A DNA stretch of 64,000 nucleotides from Bdellovibrionota bacterium (GTDB lineage: Bacteria > Bdellovibrionota > Bacteriovoracia > Bacteriovoracales > Bacteriovoracaceae), in NCBI GenBank assembly GCA_036336775.1, contig JAYZFM010000042.1, forward strand, positions 9,945-73,944, in the 5' to 3' direction. The translations under genes and the position numbers were made by a program. This document shows, one piece after another, positions 5,348 through 22,161 of the stretch. How positions within the stretch are numbered: position 1 is the first letter of the stretch; each line of letters starts with the position of its first letter. The notes beneath the pieces were generated by a model, which was given only the letters and a program-made list of their open reading frames with translations, was not told where the DNA came from and did no database searches.

Positions 5348-7729
5348 ATGCTCAAATTATGGTTAGGATTAGTATTGACCTTATTGCTCACAGGATGTGG
5401 GGATCTCTTCATGAAAAACTCAGAAGATGGGGAAGTGGAATTAGACCAATTCGCTACTTGTGAGTTAGATATCGATGCATTCAGCTATATTTTAGAAAAG
5501 AATATTAAGGGTGAAATCTTATGCCTTAAAGAACAACTTGATCTTTTCATGGATGTTATTCGAACCGATAAGCCAGGTTATGTTTCTAAGGCTGTTTTAA
5601 CTGATTTTTTGATTAATGGACCAGTAGAAGTAGAAGATGATGTCGTCGATATAGTTGAGAACATCTTTGAGCTGAGTTTTCTTATCTTAGGTACAGATCG
5701 AGAATATATAAAAAGAGAAGACGTATATTCACTTATTGATTTTCTTGTTTTCTTTAATGAGCATATTTGGCGTTCTTATAAGTTCTTTAATTCTGAAGAT
5801 GATATCAACTACTCCCGTCAGTTAAGAGAAAGGCAAATTATATTTGATGAGTTTGCTCTCATTGCCGGAAAAATTCGTGAAATCTATCGACCACAGCGTA
5901 ATGGGGTAGATGTGATCGATACTGAAAAGTTTATTTTTAAATTCTTTAAAAAAGAAGGTCAAACGCTAGAGAAGATAAGAAGTTTGATGTTTCTAAAAAG
6001 GCTCTTTCTTGGCGGTCAAATTTGGGAACTCAACCATCTTGAAATTAGTCGAGCTCTTGAAATCTTACCTTACCTTGCTCAAGTCGCTTTTGATGTTTCT
6101 AAAATTGAAAATTATAAATTTGAACAAGAGCAAGAAACCCTGATTAAAGTCTTCATGAAAGATATTGATATCGTCAAAGACACGATGTTTTATACAGAGG
6201 ACTCTTTTGAGTCTGTTTTTACTGTCTATGATGTGATCAATGCAGTTAAGACAATGATACCTGATTTAACAGACGATATTGATGTTGCAAAATATCCTAG
6301 AGAGATTATGCGAGTTAAAGAAATTTTCTTAGGTGCAGGCGGGGAGTTTTTTTCGTCTAAAGAGATTGCTACTTTTTTAAATCTCGGGTCTAGCATTCTA
6401 GATGAAGCGATTACTTTCTATCGGATTTATACATATTATCAAAATGAATTGGATGATACGAAACCAATTTCTCACGATTTTTCTGACTATCCAGTCACAA
6501 ACTCAAGAGAGCTTAGCTATAGAGAGAATTTTGCTCGGATTGTTAGTGGTTATAAGTTTGTGAAAGGAAATAGTATCTCTCCATACTTCACCCATGACTG
6601 GAGAAGAAACGCAAATGCTTATTTTCAAATTGGAGCGCTGGAGCGCCTGATTGGATATGTTTTCGATTTCTATGGAAGTAATAACCCCTCGGCTAGAGGC
6701 GGCTATGATATGACCCTAGATGAGACGGTCAATCTAATAAAAGATTTTAAATGGCTTCTTAGAGACTTTGGGATCATCGTCATTGGGAAGAAAGGTGGTG
6801 GAGAGATCCAAGGGGTTGCTGAAAATTTTGTATTGATGTCGACTCTTTTTCAATTTCAATCTGATGGATGCGGCGATAGTGTTTGTATGGAAGTTCCCGA
6901 GACAATGGAATTTCTTATTGGGATGTTGACGGCGCTTGAAATTAAAGACTTTTTTACAGATACGATGATGAGCCTATGTGCAACAGAATTAGATCAATAT
7001 AATAGAATTGCGCCTACTTGTTTTCGAGATAATTTTCTCAACGTACTTGAGACTTCAATTCCAAGTGATAAAGAGGGCAGGGCCATTTCTGATTTTATGC
7101 CACTTCTGCACAAATACATTAAAGAGTTAACGGCAGATATTGAGCCGAATGAGCCAATTACGAATTCACCAGATTATTTAAAATTTATTACTGAGACAGA
7201 AGCCTTCACTAGAAGTTGTATGTATTATGACGAAGCTGATACCGACGAAGTCTATTTAAAAAGTAACGATGCATTTGCGGTATTTGCGGGTCTTTTAAAT
7301 GTTGAATCCACTCTTTTAAGATTTGATATTAATGGCAATAATAAGCTCGATGGTGTTAATGGTTTTAATGAAGTCATGCATGCCTATTATAACGTCTACG
7401 AAGGAGCGATAAAGGCTCTTGTGGCTCCTGATGGTGGCTTTATGGAGAAGCTAGCTAAGCCAATCTTTAAGTATCTTATAAAAAATGGAACTGTTCCTGA
7501 GACCAATAGATTCAGCAGCATTTGGAAATTTGTTAAATTCCTATTGAAGAGAAATAAAGATGCGGATGCTTCAAGAACGACAGTTGCGACTATTTTAAAA
7601 ACTCTTGGAGAGCAATCAGAAACTGGAAAACTCTATCCTTTTAAGTGTGAGGAATGTCTGCGAGATCCAACAATAGAGTGTGTGCCAGAAGGAAATGACT
7701 GGGAACCAAGAAATACTTCAACTTATTGA
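5348..7729 (+). CDS. large lipoprotein, unknown function
   Basis: 793-aa ORF with lipobox LLLTGC at the N-terminus. I recognised no family motif. Confidence 0.6.
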   Translation: MLKLWLGLVLTLLLTGCGDLFMKNSEDGEVELDQFATCELDIDAFSYILEKNIKGEILCLKEQLDLFMDVIRTDKPGYVSKAVLTDFLINGPVEVEDDVVDIVENIFELSFLILGTDREYIKREDVYSLIDFLVFFNEHIWRSYKFFNSEDDINYSRQLRERQIIFDEFALIAGKIREIYRPQRNGVDVIDTEKFIFKFFKKEGQTLEKIRSLMFLKRLFLGGQIWELNHLEISRALEILPYLAQVAFDVSKIENYKFEQEQETLIKVFMKDIDIVKDTMFYTEDSFESVFTVYDVINAVKTMIPDLTDDIDVAKYPREIMRVKEIFLGAGGEFFSSKEIATFLNLGSSILDEAITFYRIYTYYQNELDDTKPISHDFSDYPVTNSRELSYRENFARIVSGYKFVKGNSISPYFTHDWRRNANAYFQIGALERLIGYVFDFYGSNNPSARGGYDMTLDETVNLIKDFKWLLRDFGIIVIGKKGGGEIQGVAENFVLMSTLFQFQSDGCGDSVCMEVPETMEFLIGMLTALEIKDFFTDTMMSLCATELDQYNRIAPTCFRDNFLNVLETSIPSDKEGRAISDFMPLLHKYIKELTADIEPNEPITNSPDYLKFITETEAFTRSCMYYDEADTDEVYLKSNDAFAVFAGLLNVESTLLRFDINGNNKLDGVNGFNEVMHAYYNVYEGAIKALVAPDGGFMEKLAKPIFKYLIKNGTVPETNRFSSIWKFVKFLLKRNKDADASRTTVATILKTLGEQSETGKLYPFKCEECLRDPTIECVPEGNDWEPRNTSTY

Positions 7730-18490: not shown

Positions 18491-18670
18491 TCAGACTTTC
18501 CGAACCAGTCCGTAAACTAGTGCCCCTAAATGATCATATTTTTCTGCTAGATTCTTATTTTGAACTATTTTGATAAGCGTTTGAGTTTCTCTTAGTGATC
18601 CCATAGCAATACTGTAAAAGCGCTTTTGATCTTTCGGCGATTGCCTGCCACTGCCCTCCGTTATGCGAGA
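18491..18670 (-). pseudogene. fragment of a four-helix-bundle (23S rRNA IVS / Avd-like) protein gene
   Basis: Manual translation of the minus strand gives ITEGSGRQSPKDQKRFYSIAMGSLRETQTLIKIVQNKNLAEKYDHLGALVYGLVRKV*. It has no start codon and an in-frame stop immediately upstream. It matches the C-terminal two thirds of this family. Confidence 0.5.
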
Positions 18671-18932
18671 TCAATTACTTCGAGCTTCTAGTAGTGTCGC
18701 GCTCAATCTAGCCGAAGGAAATGCGCGAAGAACACCTAAGGACAGGCTTAGAATGTTCAATATCGCACTATCGAGCCTTCGCGAGGTACAAATGATCTGC
18801 AATCTCGAAGACTTAAATCTATTGGAAAAGCAGGCTGATAAAGTTGGAGCGATGATTTATGTACTAAACCGGAACTTAACCGATGCTGTAACTGAAACTG
18901 AAACTGTAGCTGAATATAGAATATCTGATTGA
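18663..18932 (+). CDS. four-helix-bundle (23S rRNA IVS / Avd-like) protein, N-terminally truncated
   Basis: DQLLRASSSVALNLAEGNARRTPKDRLRMFNIALSSLREVQ matches the family core. About 40 N-terminal residues (helix 1) are missing. It abuts the inverted fragment at 18491..18670. Confidence 0.55.
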   Translation: MRDQLLRASSSVALNLAEGNARRTPKDRLRMFNIALSSLREVQMICNLEDLNLLEKQADKVGAMIYVLNRNLTDAVTETETVAEYRISD

Positions 18933-19407: not shown

Positions 19408-19523
19408 TTTTGCCTACTTCTTAAGGCAGTGTTTTTATAAAAAATTACCGAAATCAAGAACTTAGCGTTCGAAATTAAGTTTTCTTTGTTAGTCATGACA
19501 TAATAGTTTCTAAGGAGAGTTTT

Positions 19524-19943
19524 ATGATGACTCAAGAGACTTATCAATTTACGGTTGGCAGTTCACAAAATTGTGAAGTAATGATTAGTAGTCCCACCGT
19601 AAGTCGCGCACACCTCAAAGTTTATTTCGCGGGTGATAGCATCTTAGTTGAAGATTTAAACTCTAGTAATGGGACTTTCGTTCTTCATGATGGCGAATTC
19701 AAGAGAATTAAAAGCGCAAAGATAAAGCCTGAGACTAAAATCAGACTTGGAAGTGGTTTAGATGCCCTCGAAGTAAAAGATATTATCGGGCTTTATGAAT
19801 CAGCTCGTGAAAAAAGTAAAAACGATATTATAAAAAGGATAAAAACTGGTGGTTTAAAAAGATGTTTTGATTGTGGTACTGTTTTAAGTAAAGAAAAAAT
19901 ACATTGTGAATGTTGTGGTGCCATTTTTGAAGAAGCTTCTTAG
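19524..19943 (+). CDS. FHA-domain protein with C-terminal zinc ribbon
   Basis: RBS aaggagag upstream. FHA core VGSSQNCEVMISSPTVSRAHLKVYF...LNSSNGTFV. C-terminal Cys pattern CFDCG-x10-CECCG. Confidence 0.75.
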   Translation: MMTQETYQFTVGSSQNCEVMISSPTVSRAHLKVYFAGDSILVEDLNSSNGTFVLHDGEFKRIKSAKIKPETKIRLGSGLDALEVKDIIGLYESAREKSKNDIIKRIKTGGLKRCFDCGTVLSKEKIHCECCGAIFEEAS

Positions 19944-20688
19944 TTCTAAAGAAACATTTTTTACATTATTCGTTTGTTCTATCGGCGTTTTAGTCGTCAA
20001 TTTGTTTTTTACATTTACACCTGCATTCTGGTCGATAATGTTTATCGGGAAGAAGCATATTTTAGGTGGAATCACCTTTCAGGATGTCATGTGGGCCATA
20101 TTTTTTCTAGGGCTCATGCAAATCTATTATCGAAAACGAGATATTGCAAAACTCGATCTTTATAGTACAAAAAACTATCTTCCCAAAGACTTTGAAACGA
20201 TTATTGGCGAGCAAGAACTAACTGAAGTCATAAGAAACGTGCGAGAAGATTCCAAGGATAGCATGGGAATTCTCCCGTATATGATCTTGCAAATAGCCCT
20301 TCAATTTAGAAAGAATAATTCGAGATCGATAACCTCAGATTTTCTTTCGAAACAATTGGAGCTTTTTCTTCATTCTGTTGAGCTTCGATACAACCAATTA
20401 AAATATATTATTTGGCTTATTCCATCACTGGGATTTATGGGAACAGTATATGGTATTGGACTCGCTGTATCCCAGTTAGGCGAGGGCTCTCTTGAAGACC
20501 CTGAACTATTAACTAAGATGGCGGGAAGTCTTGGGGTGGCATTTAATACCACTTTGCTCGCATTAGTTTTATCAGTGATCCTTCAGTTTTTTACTCAGCA
20601 CTTCGAAGCGCAGGAAGAAAGCTTAATCAATAAATTCGGGAAATATATCTTAGATAATTTAATAAATAAACTAGTGGAAAAATCATGA
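19906..20688 (+). CDS. MotA/TolQ/ExbB-family proton-channel protein
   Basis: Core motif PSLGFMGTVYGIGLAV ... LGVAFNTTLLALVLSVILQFF. The start is uncertain: GTG at 19906, or nearby GTG/TTG codons. It overlaps the FHA gene. Confidence 0.65.
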   Translation: MNVVVPFLKKLLSSKETFFTLFVCSIGVLVVNLFFTFTPAFWSIMFIGKKHILGGITFQDVMWAIFFLGLMQIYYRKRDIAKLDLYSTKNYLPKDFETIIGEQELTEVIRNVREDSKDSMGILPYMILQIALQFRKNNSRSITSDFLSKQLELFLHSVELRYNQLKYIIWLIPSLGFMGTVYGIGLAVSQLGEGSLEDPELLTKMAGSLGVAFNTTLLALVLSVILQFFTQHFEAQEESLINKFGKYILDNLINKLVEKS

Positions 20689-21593
20689 GGGCGCGAAAGT
20701 CGAGAGAGGTAAATATATTTTCTGCTTCGGTCGTTGATCTATTCGCTTCAGGGCTTGGAGTCTTTCTTATTGTGGCGATCATAGCTTTGGCCAATCAAAA
20801 AAAAGAAACCTCGCGTGCGCTTGAAGGTGGTCAAACAGGAACAATTATTAAAACGCCTGAGAATAGCAAGCTTGTTGGGAAAGAACAGAATTTTGCCAAT
20901 AGCGATGCTCCCCTTATTTCTTCTCTTGAATCAAAAATAGAAAAATTGGAAGCTTCTGTAGACCTGAAAACAAAAGAAAATTTAAGTCTAAGAAAAAAAA
21001 TAGCAACCAATTCAGATTCTGAAGATAAAACTGATTATGAATTTCTATTGGCCGCTGCTGAAAAAGAAAAAAAAGAATTGGCCAAAAAAGTTTCAGAACT
21101 AGAAGCGAAATTAGAACAAAAAGAACTAGAAAAAATGGAAATTAAAAGGGAACTAACTTATAAGCAGGACGCCAGAAAAGGGGAGCAAGGGGTCGCTAAT
21201 AACTTTGATAACTTTCAGATCGGTTCACGTTTTAAACTTCAGAATGTTCACTTTTATCCTGGAACAGAAAAAGCAATAGAGCCTTATTCAAGTCGTGAAG
21301 TGGAAGATCTCGCTTTGTTCTTAAAGAAAAATCCAGCTGTTTCAATCGAAATTTCAGGTCATATATATGAAACTAAAAAGGCCATAGAAGCAGGCAAGGC
21401 TGATGATGAATTTAATTTATCAGGAAGAAGGGCACAGTACGTTTGTCAGAAGCTAGAGGAGTTTGGAGTAAATCCAAAAAGATTGAGGTGCCTAGGTTAT
21501 GGCGCAACAAGACCTCTATACTTAACAGATGACCAGTATTCTGAGGAAGCCCAATTGAATAGAAGAGTTGAAGTTGAAATCCTTACCAAATAA
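20685..21593 (+). CDS. MotB/OmpA-like protein: TM with conserved Asp, long coiled coil, C-terminal OmpA peptidoglycan-binding domain
   Basis: N-terminal segment EVNIFSASVVDLFASGLGVFLIV. An E/K-rich coiled coil of about 150 aa. OmpA_C motifs ISGHIY, NLSGRRAQYV, GYGATRP and NRRVEVEIL. There is a 4-nt start/stop overlap with the MotA-like gene. Confidence 0.75.
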   Translation: MRARKSREVNIFSASVVDLFASGLGVFLIVAIIALANQKKETSRALEGGQTGTIIKTPENSKLVGKEQNFANSDAPLISSLESKIEKLEASVDLKTKENLSLRKKIATNSDSEDKTDYEFLLAAAEKEKKELAKKVSELEAKLEQKELEKMEIKRELTYKQDARKGEQGVANNFDNFQIGSRFKLQNVHFYPGTEKAIEPYSSREVEDLALFLKKNPAVSIEISGHIYETKKAIEAGKADDEFNLSGRRAQYVCQKLEEFGVNPKRLRCLGYGATRPLYLTDDQYSEEAQLNRRVEVEILTK

Positions 21594-22161
21594 TCTTCTC
21601 CCATTTTCAGGCGAAGCATATCTTATAAAATCCTTTTTTAGTGGACAAGAATCCTTCAATCTTTTGAATAAGATTAAGTCTACTGTTAAGTGGCGAGACG
21701 ACAAAATAACTATGTTTGGAAAGACCTATCCTCAAGCGAGAAAAGTTGCTTTTTATGGCGATGAAAATATTGAATACACTTATTCTCGTATAAAAATGAG
21801 GACACGCTTTTGGACTGATGAATTGAAATCACTTAATCATAGGTTGAAGCTTGATTATGATTTAATATTTAACACCGCTCTCGTAAACTACTATCGCGAT
21901 GGAAGGGATCATATGTCCTGGCATAGGGATGATGAACCTGAGTTAGGAATAAACCCGTCGATTGCTTCTATCAGTTTTGGAGCTAGTCGTGATTTCTTTT
22001 TCCGTCACGATGAAGGTGAAAAAGTAAAATTAACTCTTGAAAATGGAGATCTTCTTCTTATGCTTGGAGAAACTCAGCACCATTGGAAACATGCTTTACC
22101 TAAAAGGCTAAAAATAAATGAACCTCGTATGAATATAACGTTTAGAAGGATCTTTGAGTGA
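21568..22161 (+). CDS. alkB: Fe(II)/2-oxoglutarate-dependent dioxygenase AlkB
   Basis: NYYRDGRDHMSWHRDDE (HxD ligands), HHWKHALP and NITFR. The TTG start overlaps the upstream gene by 26 nt. Confidence 0.8.
   Translation: MKLKSLPNNLLPFSGEAYLIKSFFSGQESFNLLNKIKSTVKWRDDKITMFGKTYPQARKVAFYGDENIEYTYSRIKMRTRFWTDELKSLNHRLKLDYDLIFNTALVNYYRDGRDHMSWHRDDEPELGINPSIASISFGASRDFFFRHDEGEKVKLTLENGDLLLMLGETQHHWKHALPKRLKINEPRMNITFRRIFE

Follow-up and report, generated by a model that had tools for sequence, protein, structure and literature searches.

Three consecutive open reading frames (ORFs) on the + strand of a 64-kb stretch of DNA from a predatory marine bacterium (hereafter the window, meaning the whole stretch that was analysed) occupy positions 19524-21593 and encode, in this order, a small FHA/zinc (Zn)-ribbon protein, an A subunit of the MotA/ExbB/TolQ superfamily and a B subunit combining a membrane helix with an OmpA/MotB-like domain. 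Ion-driven membrane motors of the 5:2 type form a small set, namely MotAB, ExbBD, TolQR, AglRQS, GldLM and ZorAB, each of which powers a different envelope process. We consider it likely that the triad described here is a non-flagellar, ion-driven motor of this type with a dedicated cytoplasmic FHA/Zn-ribbon partner. An earlier reading of the same DNA (the original prediction) had proposed a non-canonical, stator-like A/B motor and left its output unassigned; the fold, the ion-path residues and the lack of equivalog matches agree with that proposal.

The triad and its three proteins

The features of the three genes, in window coordinates, are as follows.

19524..19943, + strand: small cytoplasmic FHA/Zn-ribbon protein, 139 amino acids (aa); Pfam FHA; AAGGAG 5-6 nt before the ATG
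19551..19751, + strand: FHA domain, residues 10-76 (PF00498, 3.4e-13)
19863..19916, + strand: C-terminal Zn ribbon, C114-x2-C117-x10-C128-x-C130-C131, read from the sequence
19906..20688, + strand: A subunit, MotA/ExbB/TolQ superfamily; 260 aa from GTG 19906, probably 253 aa from TTG 19927
20419..20565, + strand: putative ion-path transmembrane (TM) helices of A, TM3 IPSLGFMGTVYGIG (172-185) and TM4 AFNTTLLAL (212-220)
20685..21593, + strand: B subunit, 302 aa; membrane helix, linker, helical stalk and OmpA/MotB-like domain
20718..20789, + strand: B membrane helix, residues 12-35; Asp18 codon at 20736-20738
20907..21176, + strand: predicted periplasmic helical stalk of B, residues 75-164, two helices in an AlphaFold2 (AF2) model
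21222..21587, + strand: OmpA/MotB-type peptidoglycan-binding domain of B, residues 180-301; Pfam OmpA; alpha/beta model with a predicted local distance difference test score (pLDDT) >85

That A is a MotA/TolQ/ExbB-type channel of about 260 aa, as originally proposed, is borne out by its match to Pfam MotA_ExbB (PF01618, 1.3e-11, 44.8 bits against a cut-off of 22.9) and by the presence of the motifs quoted at the time. No NCBIfam model, including the TolQ, ExbB and MotA equivalogs, matched A at E<=0.1, and a relative of A matched exbB2 only (4e-4, 20 bits against a cut-off of 135). The TM3 and TM4 motifs of A align to TM motifs of TolQ and MotA; in MotA, ExbB and TolQ these two helices line the ion path beside the Asp of the B subunit. 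An alignment of 79 members shows next to no variation in TM3 (I-P-S-L-G-F-x-G-T-V-x-G-I) and TM4 (A-F-x-T-T-L-L-A-L): P173, G176, F177, G179 and G183 are found throughout, and T180 and T216 in 78 of the 79.

Because the A-family profile gave only E about 0.1 against solved structures, fold comparison was needed. An AF2 model of A built on a 19-sequence alignment (pLDDT 87) was compared with the Protein Data Bank (PDB) using Foldseek, where all named matches were A subunits of 5:2 motors (probability 0.96-1.00, TM-score 0.33-0.57), led by ExbB, followed by TolQ and ZorA (8vvn), with MotA and PomA farther away (TM-score 0.33-0.40). The modelled protein carries an extra N-terminal membrane helix and a cytoplasmic domain between TM2 and TM3, a predicted four-helix layout of the MotA/ZorA kind. 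Residue 98 of A (nt 20197-20199) is a Thr lying just after TM2 in a cytoplasmic motif, Y-L-P-E-D-x-x-T-[VIM]-L; 59 of the 79 members have it, whereas 14, among them the 80%-identical homologue P0002, carry Val. This Thr could possibly serve as a phospho-acceptor site in the full systems described below.

The B subunit begins with MRARKSREVNIFSASVVDLFASGLGVFLIVAIIAL, and its membrane helix FSASVVDLFASGLGVFLIVAIIAL bears Asp18 within FSASVVDLFASGLG. The Asp is kept in at least 90% of 88 B proteins aligned from the loci of the wider family, as is each of S15, A21, G25 and F27. At the other end, the C-terminal domain matches Pfam OmpA (4.3e-12) and finds its best solved relative in the C-domain of H. 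pylori MotB (5.5e-8), while NCBIfam returned sub-threshold matches to MotB, MotD and MotS (48 bits against a cut-off of 250 for MotB PRK08457). The AF2 model of B (pLDDT 76) consists of a helix at 12-47, helices at 75-108 and 115-164 and an alpha/beta domain at 180-301, with a low-confidence stretch of ~27 aa (48-74) that is probably a disordered linker. The membrane-embedded Asp and the OmpA domain of the original prediction therefore stand, whereas its coiled coil of about 150 aa gives way, on the basis of the modelled helices, to a stalk of about 85 helical residues plus the linker; at an assumed 0.15 nm per helical residue, this stalk would measure roughly 13 nm.

For the first protein, Pfam and the sequence agree with the predicted FHA domain ending in a CxxC-x10-CxCC ribbon, the five Cys of which are invariant in 27 sequences; 26 aligned relatives from Bacteriovoracales, 137-154 aa long, share 53-81% identity with the protein. 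Its relatives in the PDB are FHA domains, the best being the ZnF-FHA protein ArnA (5a8i, 2e-11). The window FHA retains G12, S27, R28, H30, S47, N49, G50 and T51, and the canonical Arg after G12 is replaced by Ser13.

The genes overlap at both junctions. The predicted 4-nt ATGA overlap between A and B is exact, whereas the predicted 38-nt overlap between the FHA gene and A holds only if A starts at GTG 19906. The overlap is probably 17 nt and the A start TTG 19927, because P0002 starts at the equivalent of TTG 19927 (MKKFL...) and the corresponding overlap in the related locus L002 is likewise 17 nt.

A wider family among phospho-signalling genes

Searched against 1.84 billion representative proteins, the A-family profile retrieved 206 clusters at E<=1e-30, 2,079 at E<=1e-10 and 3,760 at E<=1e-3. 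Because only 3,760 clusters were reached at the loosest of these thresholds, the family is a narrow clade and not the whole superfamily; judged from these scores it is sizeable yet sharply delimited from the superfamily bulk. The window A aligns with the clade from end to end (34-79% identity, 37 invariant columns), and its score against the clade hidden Markov model (HMM), 1.8e-90, is partly circular, the HMM having been seeded with the window A itself. With one genome scanned per species, at least 591 species genomes encode an A relative, and the relatives listed span Alpha-, Beta- and Gammaproteobacteria, Latescibacterota, Gemmatimonadota, Acidobacteriota, Verrucomicrobiota, Rhodothermales, Desulfovibrio and Bdellovibrionota. 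The description of the operon as an orphan thus has to be given up, A being part of a large unnamed clade found in many phyla.

Gene neighbourhoods were counted in the best 80 loci among the first 600 pattern matches, so that the counts are lower bounds; most relatives come from metagenome-assembled genomes (MAGs), and raw ORFs served as gene calls. In 47 of the 70 loci with enough flank, in several phyla, A is immediately preceded on the same strand by a small FHA gene (about 90-200 aa); the gap has a median of about 2 nt, and many of these pairs overlap. The linkage of FHA and A, whose conservation the original prediction had proposed to check, is thus strongly conserved. Among the 49 loci with full flanks, a B-type gene with the near-identical motif SALDLFASALGAF was found within 9 kb of A in 46, and a Ser/Thr kinase or PP2C gene within the same distance in 43. 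When the neighbours in all 80 loci were clustered, only A, B, FHA, kinase and PP2C recurred widely; the next family occurred in 9 loci, and no recurring extra neighbour that might be a candidate load for the motor appeared in more than that.

The N-terminus of B is conserved nearly letter for letter across phyla (R-x-R-E-[IV]-N-[IV]-F-S-[MIL]-S-A-L-D-L-F-A-S-A-L-G-A-F-I-L-I), and the window B carries the clade signature S-A-[LIV]-D-L-F-A-S-x-x-G-x-F. Family B proteins continue from this helix into a coiled coil and then a variable C-terminal domain, which among the 88 is VWA in 41 and OmpA in 3, the remainder having no assigned domain. The VWA domain is predicted to be periplasmic because it lies C-terminal to a helix whose N-terminus would be inside, as judged from charge distribution and by analogy with MotB, ExbD and TolR. 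Many loci hold two B paralogues, in tandem or flanking an extra FHA gene (L004, with paralogues at 5541-6470 and 6467-7405, L010, L011, L012 and L021); by analogy with AglQ/AglS, such pairs suggest a heterodimeric B axle.

Besides the small FHA proteins, the loci encode 65 large ones, mostly with an N-terminal trypsin/HtrA/DegS-like peptidase, a membrane helix and a C-terminal FHA domain: 37 carry this type of peptidase, 7 a VWA domain and 4 an M4 peptidase. Those with the peptidase-TM-FHA layout often occur as tandem pairs (for example L025 12694-15897), the peptidase being predicted periplasmic and the FHA domain cytoplasmic. The L025 locus is a full-size example of the family, comprising a small FHA protein, A, a probable divergent FHA protein (no Pfam match and a weak NCBIfam FhaB match, 3.8e-7), PP2C, two trypsin-TM-FHA proteins, B and a kinase. 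This kinase, the one kinase examined, has 1,227 aa and carries PG_binding and FGE-sulfatase domains. Carriers of the full system include a cultured strain, Thiomicrospira microaerophila ASL8-2 (L055). At the other extreme, four Gemmatimonadota loci (L066, L068, L072 and L073) consist of A and B only, no FHA, kinase or PP2C gene having been detected within the full 9-kb flanks of L072 and L073 and the shorter flanks of L066 and L068; their B, of about 335 aa, is transcribed convergently to A, and they represent a second kind of minimal version of the family.

The Bacteriovoracales form and its genomic setting

Full-length relatives of the window B make up about 62 clusters (41-97% identity), of which all named ones belong to Bacteriovoracaceae; below these, matches drop abruptly to about 40% query coverage, in the OmpA region. 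Among the 80 loci an OmpA-type B was found in L008 and L009 only, so that, as far as sequence comparison can tell, this type is restricted to Bacteriovoracales. Searches for a kinase, PP2C, VWA protein or second FHA protein in the 64-kb window returned none, even at E<=10 with clade-derived HMMs, and neither kinase nor PP2C was found within 9 kb in L008 and L009 or among the called genes of the 16.8-kb L002.

The small FHA protein has changed as well. In the wider family (loci L010-L086) it mostly ends in a conserved R-[RN]-[ND]-P-x-T-G-E-I (for example L025 9597-9998), a tail that is replaced by the Zn ribbon in Bacteriovoracales; the small FHA proteins of L063, L064 and L067 have a C-x-C-G...C-x-x-C-G element in the tail position, and R-[RN]-[ND]-P-x-T-G-E-I is possibly a degenerate knuckle through which the protein docks on the motor. 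In FHA domains, the Arg that follows the conserved Gly contacts the phosphate of phosphothreonine. Of 42 small FHA proteins from the wider family, 39 have Arg at this position; the 27 Bacteriovoracales sequences have Ser in 18 cases, Arg in 4, Lys in 4 and Ala in 1, and position 49 is variable among them too.

Gating of the motor by phosphothreonine signalling through the FHA protein had been part of the original prediction, together with a search for a cognate Ser/Thr kinase, which found none in the 64-kb window. The signalling link is well founded for the family, because relatives sit among kinases or PP2C in 43 of 49 loci, but phospho-gating is doubtful in the lineage of the window, because kinase, PP2C and second FHA are missing from the 64 kb and the Arg is present in only 4 of 27 sequences. 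In Bacteriovoracales the FHA protein is probably a phospho-independent or relaxed docking module, and phospho-control appears to have been relaxed or lost, wall anchoring taking the place of the VWA domain. The window A, for its part, diverges at positions conserved elsewhere, such as E72 to Q, R125 to Y and C248 to I. The restriction of the OmpA-type B, the missing enzymes, the changed FHA tail and Arg, the divergence of A and a location in the core genome together argue that the triad is a vertically inherited, pared-down derivative of the wider family.

The core location is read from synteny. The triad order is kept in the syntenic loci L002, L008 and L009 (identity 47-80%), and the same core region, running from a GDPD gene through the triad to GT9-GT2 and nuo genes, is found in four Bacteriovoracales loci; together with the uniform G+C content of the window (about 37%), this argues for vertical inheritance of the triad within the core genome. 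The nearest named relatives are Halobacteriovoraceae and Bacteriovoracaceae MAGs (Bdellovibrionota, order Bacteriovoracales). Neighbours in the window comprise GDPD, MaoC-like, acyltransferase, heptosyltransferase (GT9), GT2 and nuo genes, in agreement with the earlier statement that no flagellar, Tol-Pal, TonB or gliding genes adjoin the triad; flagellar genes were found neither within about 6 kb of it nor in the syntenic loci. Two further features flank the triad.

19410..19429, + strand: terminator-like hairpin just 3' of an upstream 112-aa ORF; from a consensus scan alone, weak evidence
21568..22161, + strand: AlkB-like 2OG-Fe(II) oxygenase, Pfam 2OG-FeII_Oxy_2 2e-34, overlapping the end of the B gene

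The hairpin is the likely upstream boundary of the transcription unit. The same consensus scan found no + strand terminator-like site within 19524-22161, and a promoter scan was uninformative (8 sites found, 9.8 expected). The AlkB-like gene is probably co-transcribed with the triad; its overlap with B amounts to 26 nt, as predicted, for the longest ORF, but to 20 nt from the start called in L001. It follows the triad in the window, L001 and L002 and is absent from that position in L008 and L009, where synteny is otherwise kept, and we therefore rejected it as a fourth component. The AlkB-like protein has a strong domain-level match to the PADLOC model 'CARF_2OG' (3e-42), confined to the 2OG part.

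Between the GDPD gene and the triad, the window holds an 89-aa ORF (18663-18932) matching PF05635 ('23S rRNA-intervening sequence protein', 4e-13); it covers only positions 32-91 of the 106 in that model and may be an N-terminally truncated copy. In L002 the same interval is occupied by an unrelated 243-aa gene. L002 (PAVS01000001.1) and L009 (PAVS01000024.1) come from one MAG assembly, GCA_002713145.1 (isolate SAT1401), which has two syntenic copies of the entire GDPD-triad-GT9-GT2 region, with A proteins 80% and 60% identical to the window A, respectively; the pattern points to a mixed bin of two related genomes and not to a duplication.

Motor reading, alternatives and significance

Domain content, fold, conserved residues, gene linkage and the family-wide association with phospho-signalling are the observations from which we build a working model. 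Five copies of A would ring the N-terminal helices of two B subunits in the inner membrane. H+ or Na+ would pass by way of Asp18 of B and the conserved TM3 and TM4 Thr residues of A, and ion flow would be converted into movement of A relative to B, which would be tethered to peptidoglycan by its OmpA/MotB-like domain through the flexible linker and the ~85-residue stalk. The FHA/Zn-ribbon protein, translationally coupled to A, would most likely dock on the cytoplasmic face of the A ring, where it could either couple the movement of A to a cytoplasmic target or gate A. An output tied to the cell envelope is probable, because OmpA or VWA domains are carried by B, a PG-binding domain by the L025 kinase, and HtrA/DegS-like proteases are fused to FHA; these parts suggest envelope sensing or force transduction.

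Several points weigh against the model as a whole or in part. Sequence profiles connect the A family to solved TolQ and MotA structures no better than stated above, and the Foldseek E-values are modest (1e-3 to 1e-2). Most neighbour labels come from home-made HMMs, seeded with Pfam-verified proteins and run on raw ORFs, with Pfam verification of the labels themselves confined to L004, L006, L025 and pooled sets. An FHA gene directly 5' of A is missing in 23 of the 70 loci, and because FHA and kinase are both missing from some Gemmatimonadota loci, the motor does not strictly require FHA. The proposed docking of FHA on A draws solely on gene coupling and analogy, and envelope sensing or force transduction solely on domain inventories.

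A farther-reaching reading, which we offer tentatively and rate at somewhat less than an even chance, takes the triad as the minimal, wall-anchored form of a widespread and hitherto unrecognised class of 5:2 motors hard-wired to eukaryote-like Ser/Thr phospho-signalling. Periplasmic sensors, namely the VWA domain on B, HtrA-like protease-FHA proteins and kinases with envelope-facing domains, would report the state of the envelope; kinase and PP2C would control the attachment of FHA adaptors to the cytoplasmic face of the motor and their release from it; and a single trans-envelope device would thus combine proton-motive force with phosphorylation. In Bacteriovoracales, VWA would have given way to OmpA and the FHA tail motif to the Zn ribbon, and phospho-control would have been dispensed with. 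The components of this class are familiar from soluble signalling modules. The partners of ArnA in Sulfolobus are the vWA protein ArnB, two kinases (ArnC and ArnD) and a phosphatase, PP2A (PMC10117864), and a bacterial vWA-kinase-FHA-PP2C operon has been described in Deinococcus (DRA0331-0334; bioRxiv 10.64898/2026.01.23.701218). Because ArnA is the closest solved relative of the FHA protein, and because both modules share the domain inventory of the wider family, the latter looks like an FHA-VWA-kinase-phosphatase signalling module joined to a 5:2 motor. The differences are that the Arn and Deinococcus modules are soluble regulators without a MotA/ExbB-type motor, that the Zn finger of ArnA is N-terminal to its FHA domain whereas the Zn ribbon of the window protein is C-terminal, and that the VWA domain of the family is fused to the periplasmic end of B, which by the predicted topology puts it on the opposite side of the membrane from FHA.

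The same precedents lend some credit to the best-surviving alternative, which we nonetheless regard as unlikely: that A and B generate no rotary force but form either a gated ion channel or a static membrane scaffold that carries a Ser/Thr phospho-signalling complex, the role of B being confined to anchoring in the wall. Signalling genes prevail in the neighbourhoods, which offer no recurring mechanical load, be it a TonB/TolA-like protein or a rotor, and the FHA-VWA-kinase-phosphatase sets of Sulfolobus (ArnA/ArnB) and Deinococcus are purely regulatory. Yet the ion-coupling residues (the Asp of B, the TM3 Pro, Gly and Thr and the TM4 Thr of A) are very strongly conserved, the fold of A matches motor subunits over its full length, and all characterised members of the superfamily couple ion flow to movement (established knowledge; PMC9389320).

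Less probable still is a Zorya-like anti-phage or conflict system, in which a MotAB-like envelope sensor signals to cytoplasmic effectors upon invasion. ZorAB is likewise a non-flagellar, MotAB-like pair with a peptidoglycan-binding B and cytoplasmic partners, and the similarity extends, weakly, to HMM and Foldseek comparisons: PADLOC pairs A with ZorA and B with ZorB, and ZorA (8vvn) is among the top Foldseek matches. The surroundings of the relatives (proteases, CHAT, VWA, kinases) also resemble conflict systems, and the L025 kinase matches the PD-T4-6 and mad6 kinase models at the level of domains. However, the PADLOC matches of the triad cover only TM3-TM4 or OmpA at E 1e-6 to 1e-4 (that of A to ZorA spans residues 165-241 only, E = 7e-6), and the other parts of the full systems match defence models only through generic protease, kinase or coiled-coil similarity. 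The window A, at 260 aa, is without the long tail of ZorA; ZorC, ZorD and ZorE are not present; and the long coiled element is cytoplasmic on ZorA but would be periplasmic on the window B. Finally, the Bacteriovoracales triad sits in a stable syntenic core running from GDPD to lipopolysaccharide glycosyltransferase genes, with uniform G+C content, and not in a variable or defence island. With matches this weak and partial for both the window triad and the full-size relative, assignment to Zorya or another catalogued defence system was rejected.

In Myxococcus, docking of GltG on the AglR5QS motor through its FHA domain is predicted, and the Zn-ribbon domain of GltJ controls partner recruitment (PMC11761067). 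GltG-AglRQS is the sole described precedent we found for an FHA domain predicted to dock on a TolQR-like motor, and since GltG and GltJ act as cytoplasmic adaptors of AglRQS, the triad might be a divergent Agl-Glt-type gliding or focal-adhesion machinery of Bdellovibrionota in which FHA and Zn ribbon link the motor to MglA polarity. A weak match of a relative's small FHA protein to the GltG model (1e-8) and the predatory host fit this idea, but we give it little credence: the GltG match reflects generic FHA similarity (34 bits against a cut-off of 650), and no glt or agl genes are adjacent, other Glt components likewise being absent from the window locus. The FHA and Zn-ribbon domains of Myxococcus reside in large TonB-like transmembrane proteins, whereas those of the window form one free 139-aa protein; AglQ and AglS carry no OmpA domain, unlike the window B; A has no NCBIfam match; and the family extends across many phyla (Latescibacterota, Gemmatimonadota, Acidobacteriota) with kinase, PP2C and FHA, not glt or agl, as the only widely recurring neighbours in the loci examined.

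ExbBD and TolQR are proton-driven 5:2 motors of the 'generic ion transporter' clade (PMC12505986). In comparison with them, the fold of A is closest to ExbB and TolQ, A keeps the TM3 pattern P-x-x-G-x-x-G-T-V-x-G and the TM4 Thr, and B likewise has a single N-terminal helix with an Asp of the essential type, encoded by a gene adjacent and coupled to that of A. The differences lie in the extra N-terminal membrane helix of A, the lack of a TolQ or ExbB equivalog match and of TonB, TolA, TolB or Pal partners beside the triad, the long stalk and OmpA domain of B (VWA in relatives) as against the small periplasmic domain of ExbD/TolR, and the dedicated FHA gene 5' of A, set in relatives in a kinase/PP2C context. 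With MotAB and PomAB the triad shares the OmpA/MotB-type C-terminal domain of B, the four helices predicted for A and the cytoplasmic TM2-TM3 domain, but MotA and PomA are structurally the farther matches, A has no MotA match, B falls far below the NCBIfam MotB cut-off, the window B has ~115 residues of linker and stalk in place of a short plug and linker, and flagellar genes were not found nearby. The least probable alternative, that the pair is simply the organism's canonical TolQR, ExbBD or flagellar MotAB beside an unrelated FHA gene, can appeal to the Pfam MotA_ExbB and OmpA matches, the sub-threshold MotB/MotD/MotS matches and MotB C-domain similarity of B and the lead of ExbB and TolQ in Foldseek, but is largely refuted by the lack of any NCBIfam match for A at E<=0.1, the 48 bits of B against the MotB cut-off of 250, the absence of tolA, tolB, pal, tonB and flagellar genes nearby, the narrow and distinct A clade (3,760 clusters at E<=1e-3 in 1.84 billion proteins) and an FHA linkage conserved across phyla.

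For the motor reading that we favour no published counterpart came to light: full-text literature searches found no system with the architecture of the triad, as the original prediction had surmised. No paper linking FHA, PP2C or a kinase to MotA, ExbB or TolQ was found apart from those on Agl-Glt, a provisional result given that subscription journals were thinly covered, and Kaur et al. 2020 (PMC7159879) mention none of MotA, TolQ and ExbB. One published classification sets flagellar stators apart from a heterogeneous group of 'generic ion transporters', for many of which no function is known, and in the portion of that paper available neither FHA proteins nor an FHA- or kinase-linked group is mentioned (PMC12505986). 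PADLOC, NCBIfam and Pfam contain no specific model for A, for the N-terminal module of B or for the assembly. The motor principle is the known 5:2 one; what is new are the accessory parts and the regulatory context.

If this is correct, the family adds another branch of 5:2 motors, present in at least about 600 species genomes from many phyla, with features that have not been described for other members of the set: an FHA adaptor of its own, systematic linkage of its genes to those for Ser/Thr kinases and PP2C and, in most family members, a stator B reported with a periplasmic VWA domain (assigned in 41 of 88). It would provide a testable case of phosphorylation control over a machine driven by proton-motive force, and a working context for hundreds of genes whose present labels go no further than 'MotA/TolQ/ExbB family', 'OmpA family' or 'FHA domain protein'; the three-gene Bacteriovoracales version would be the simplest handle for structural work.

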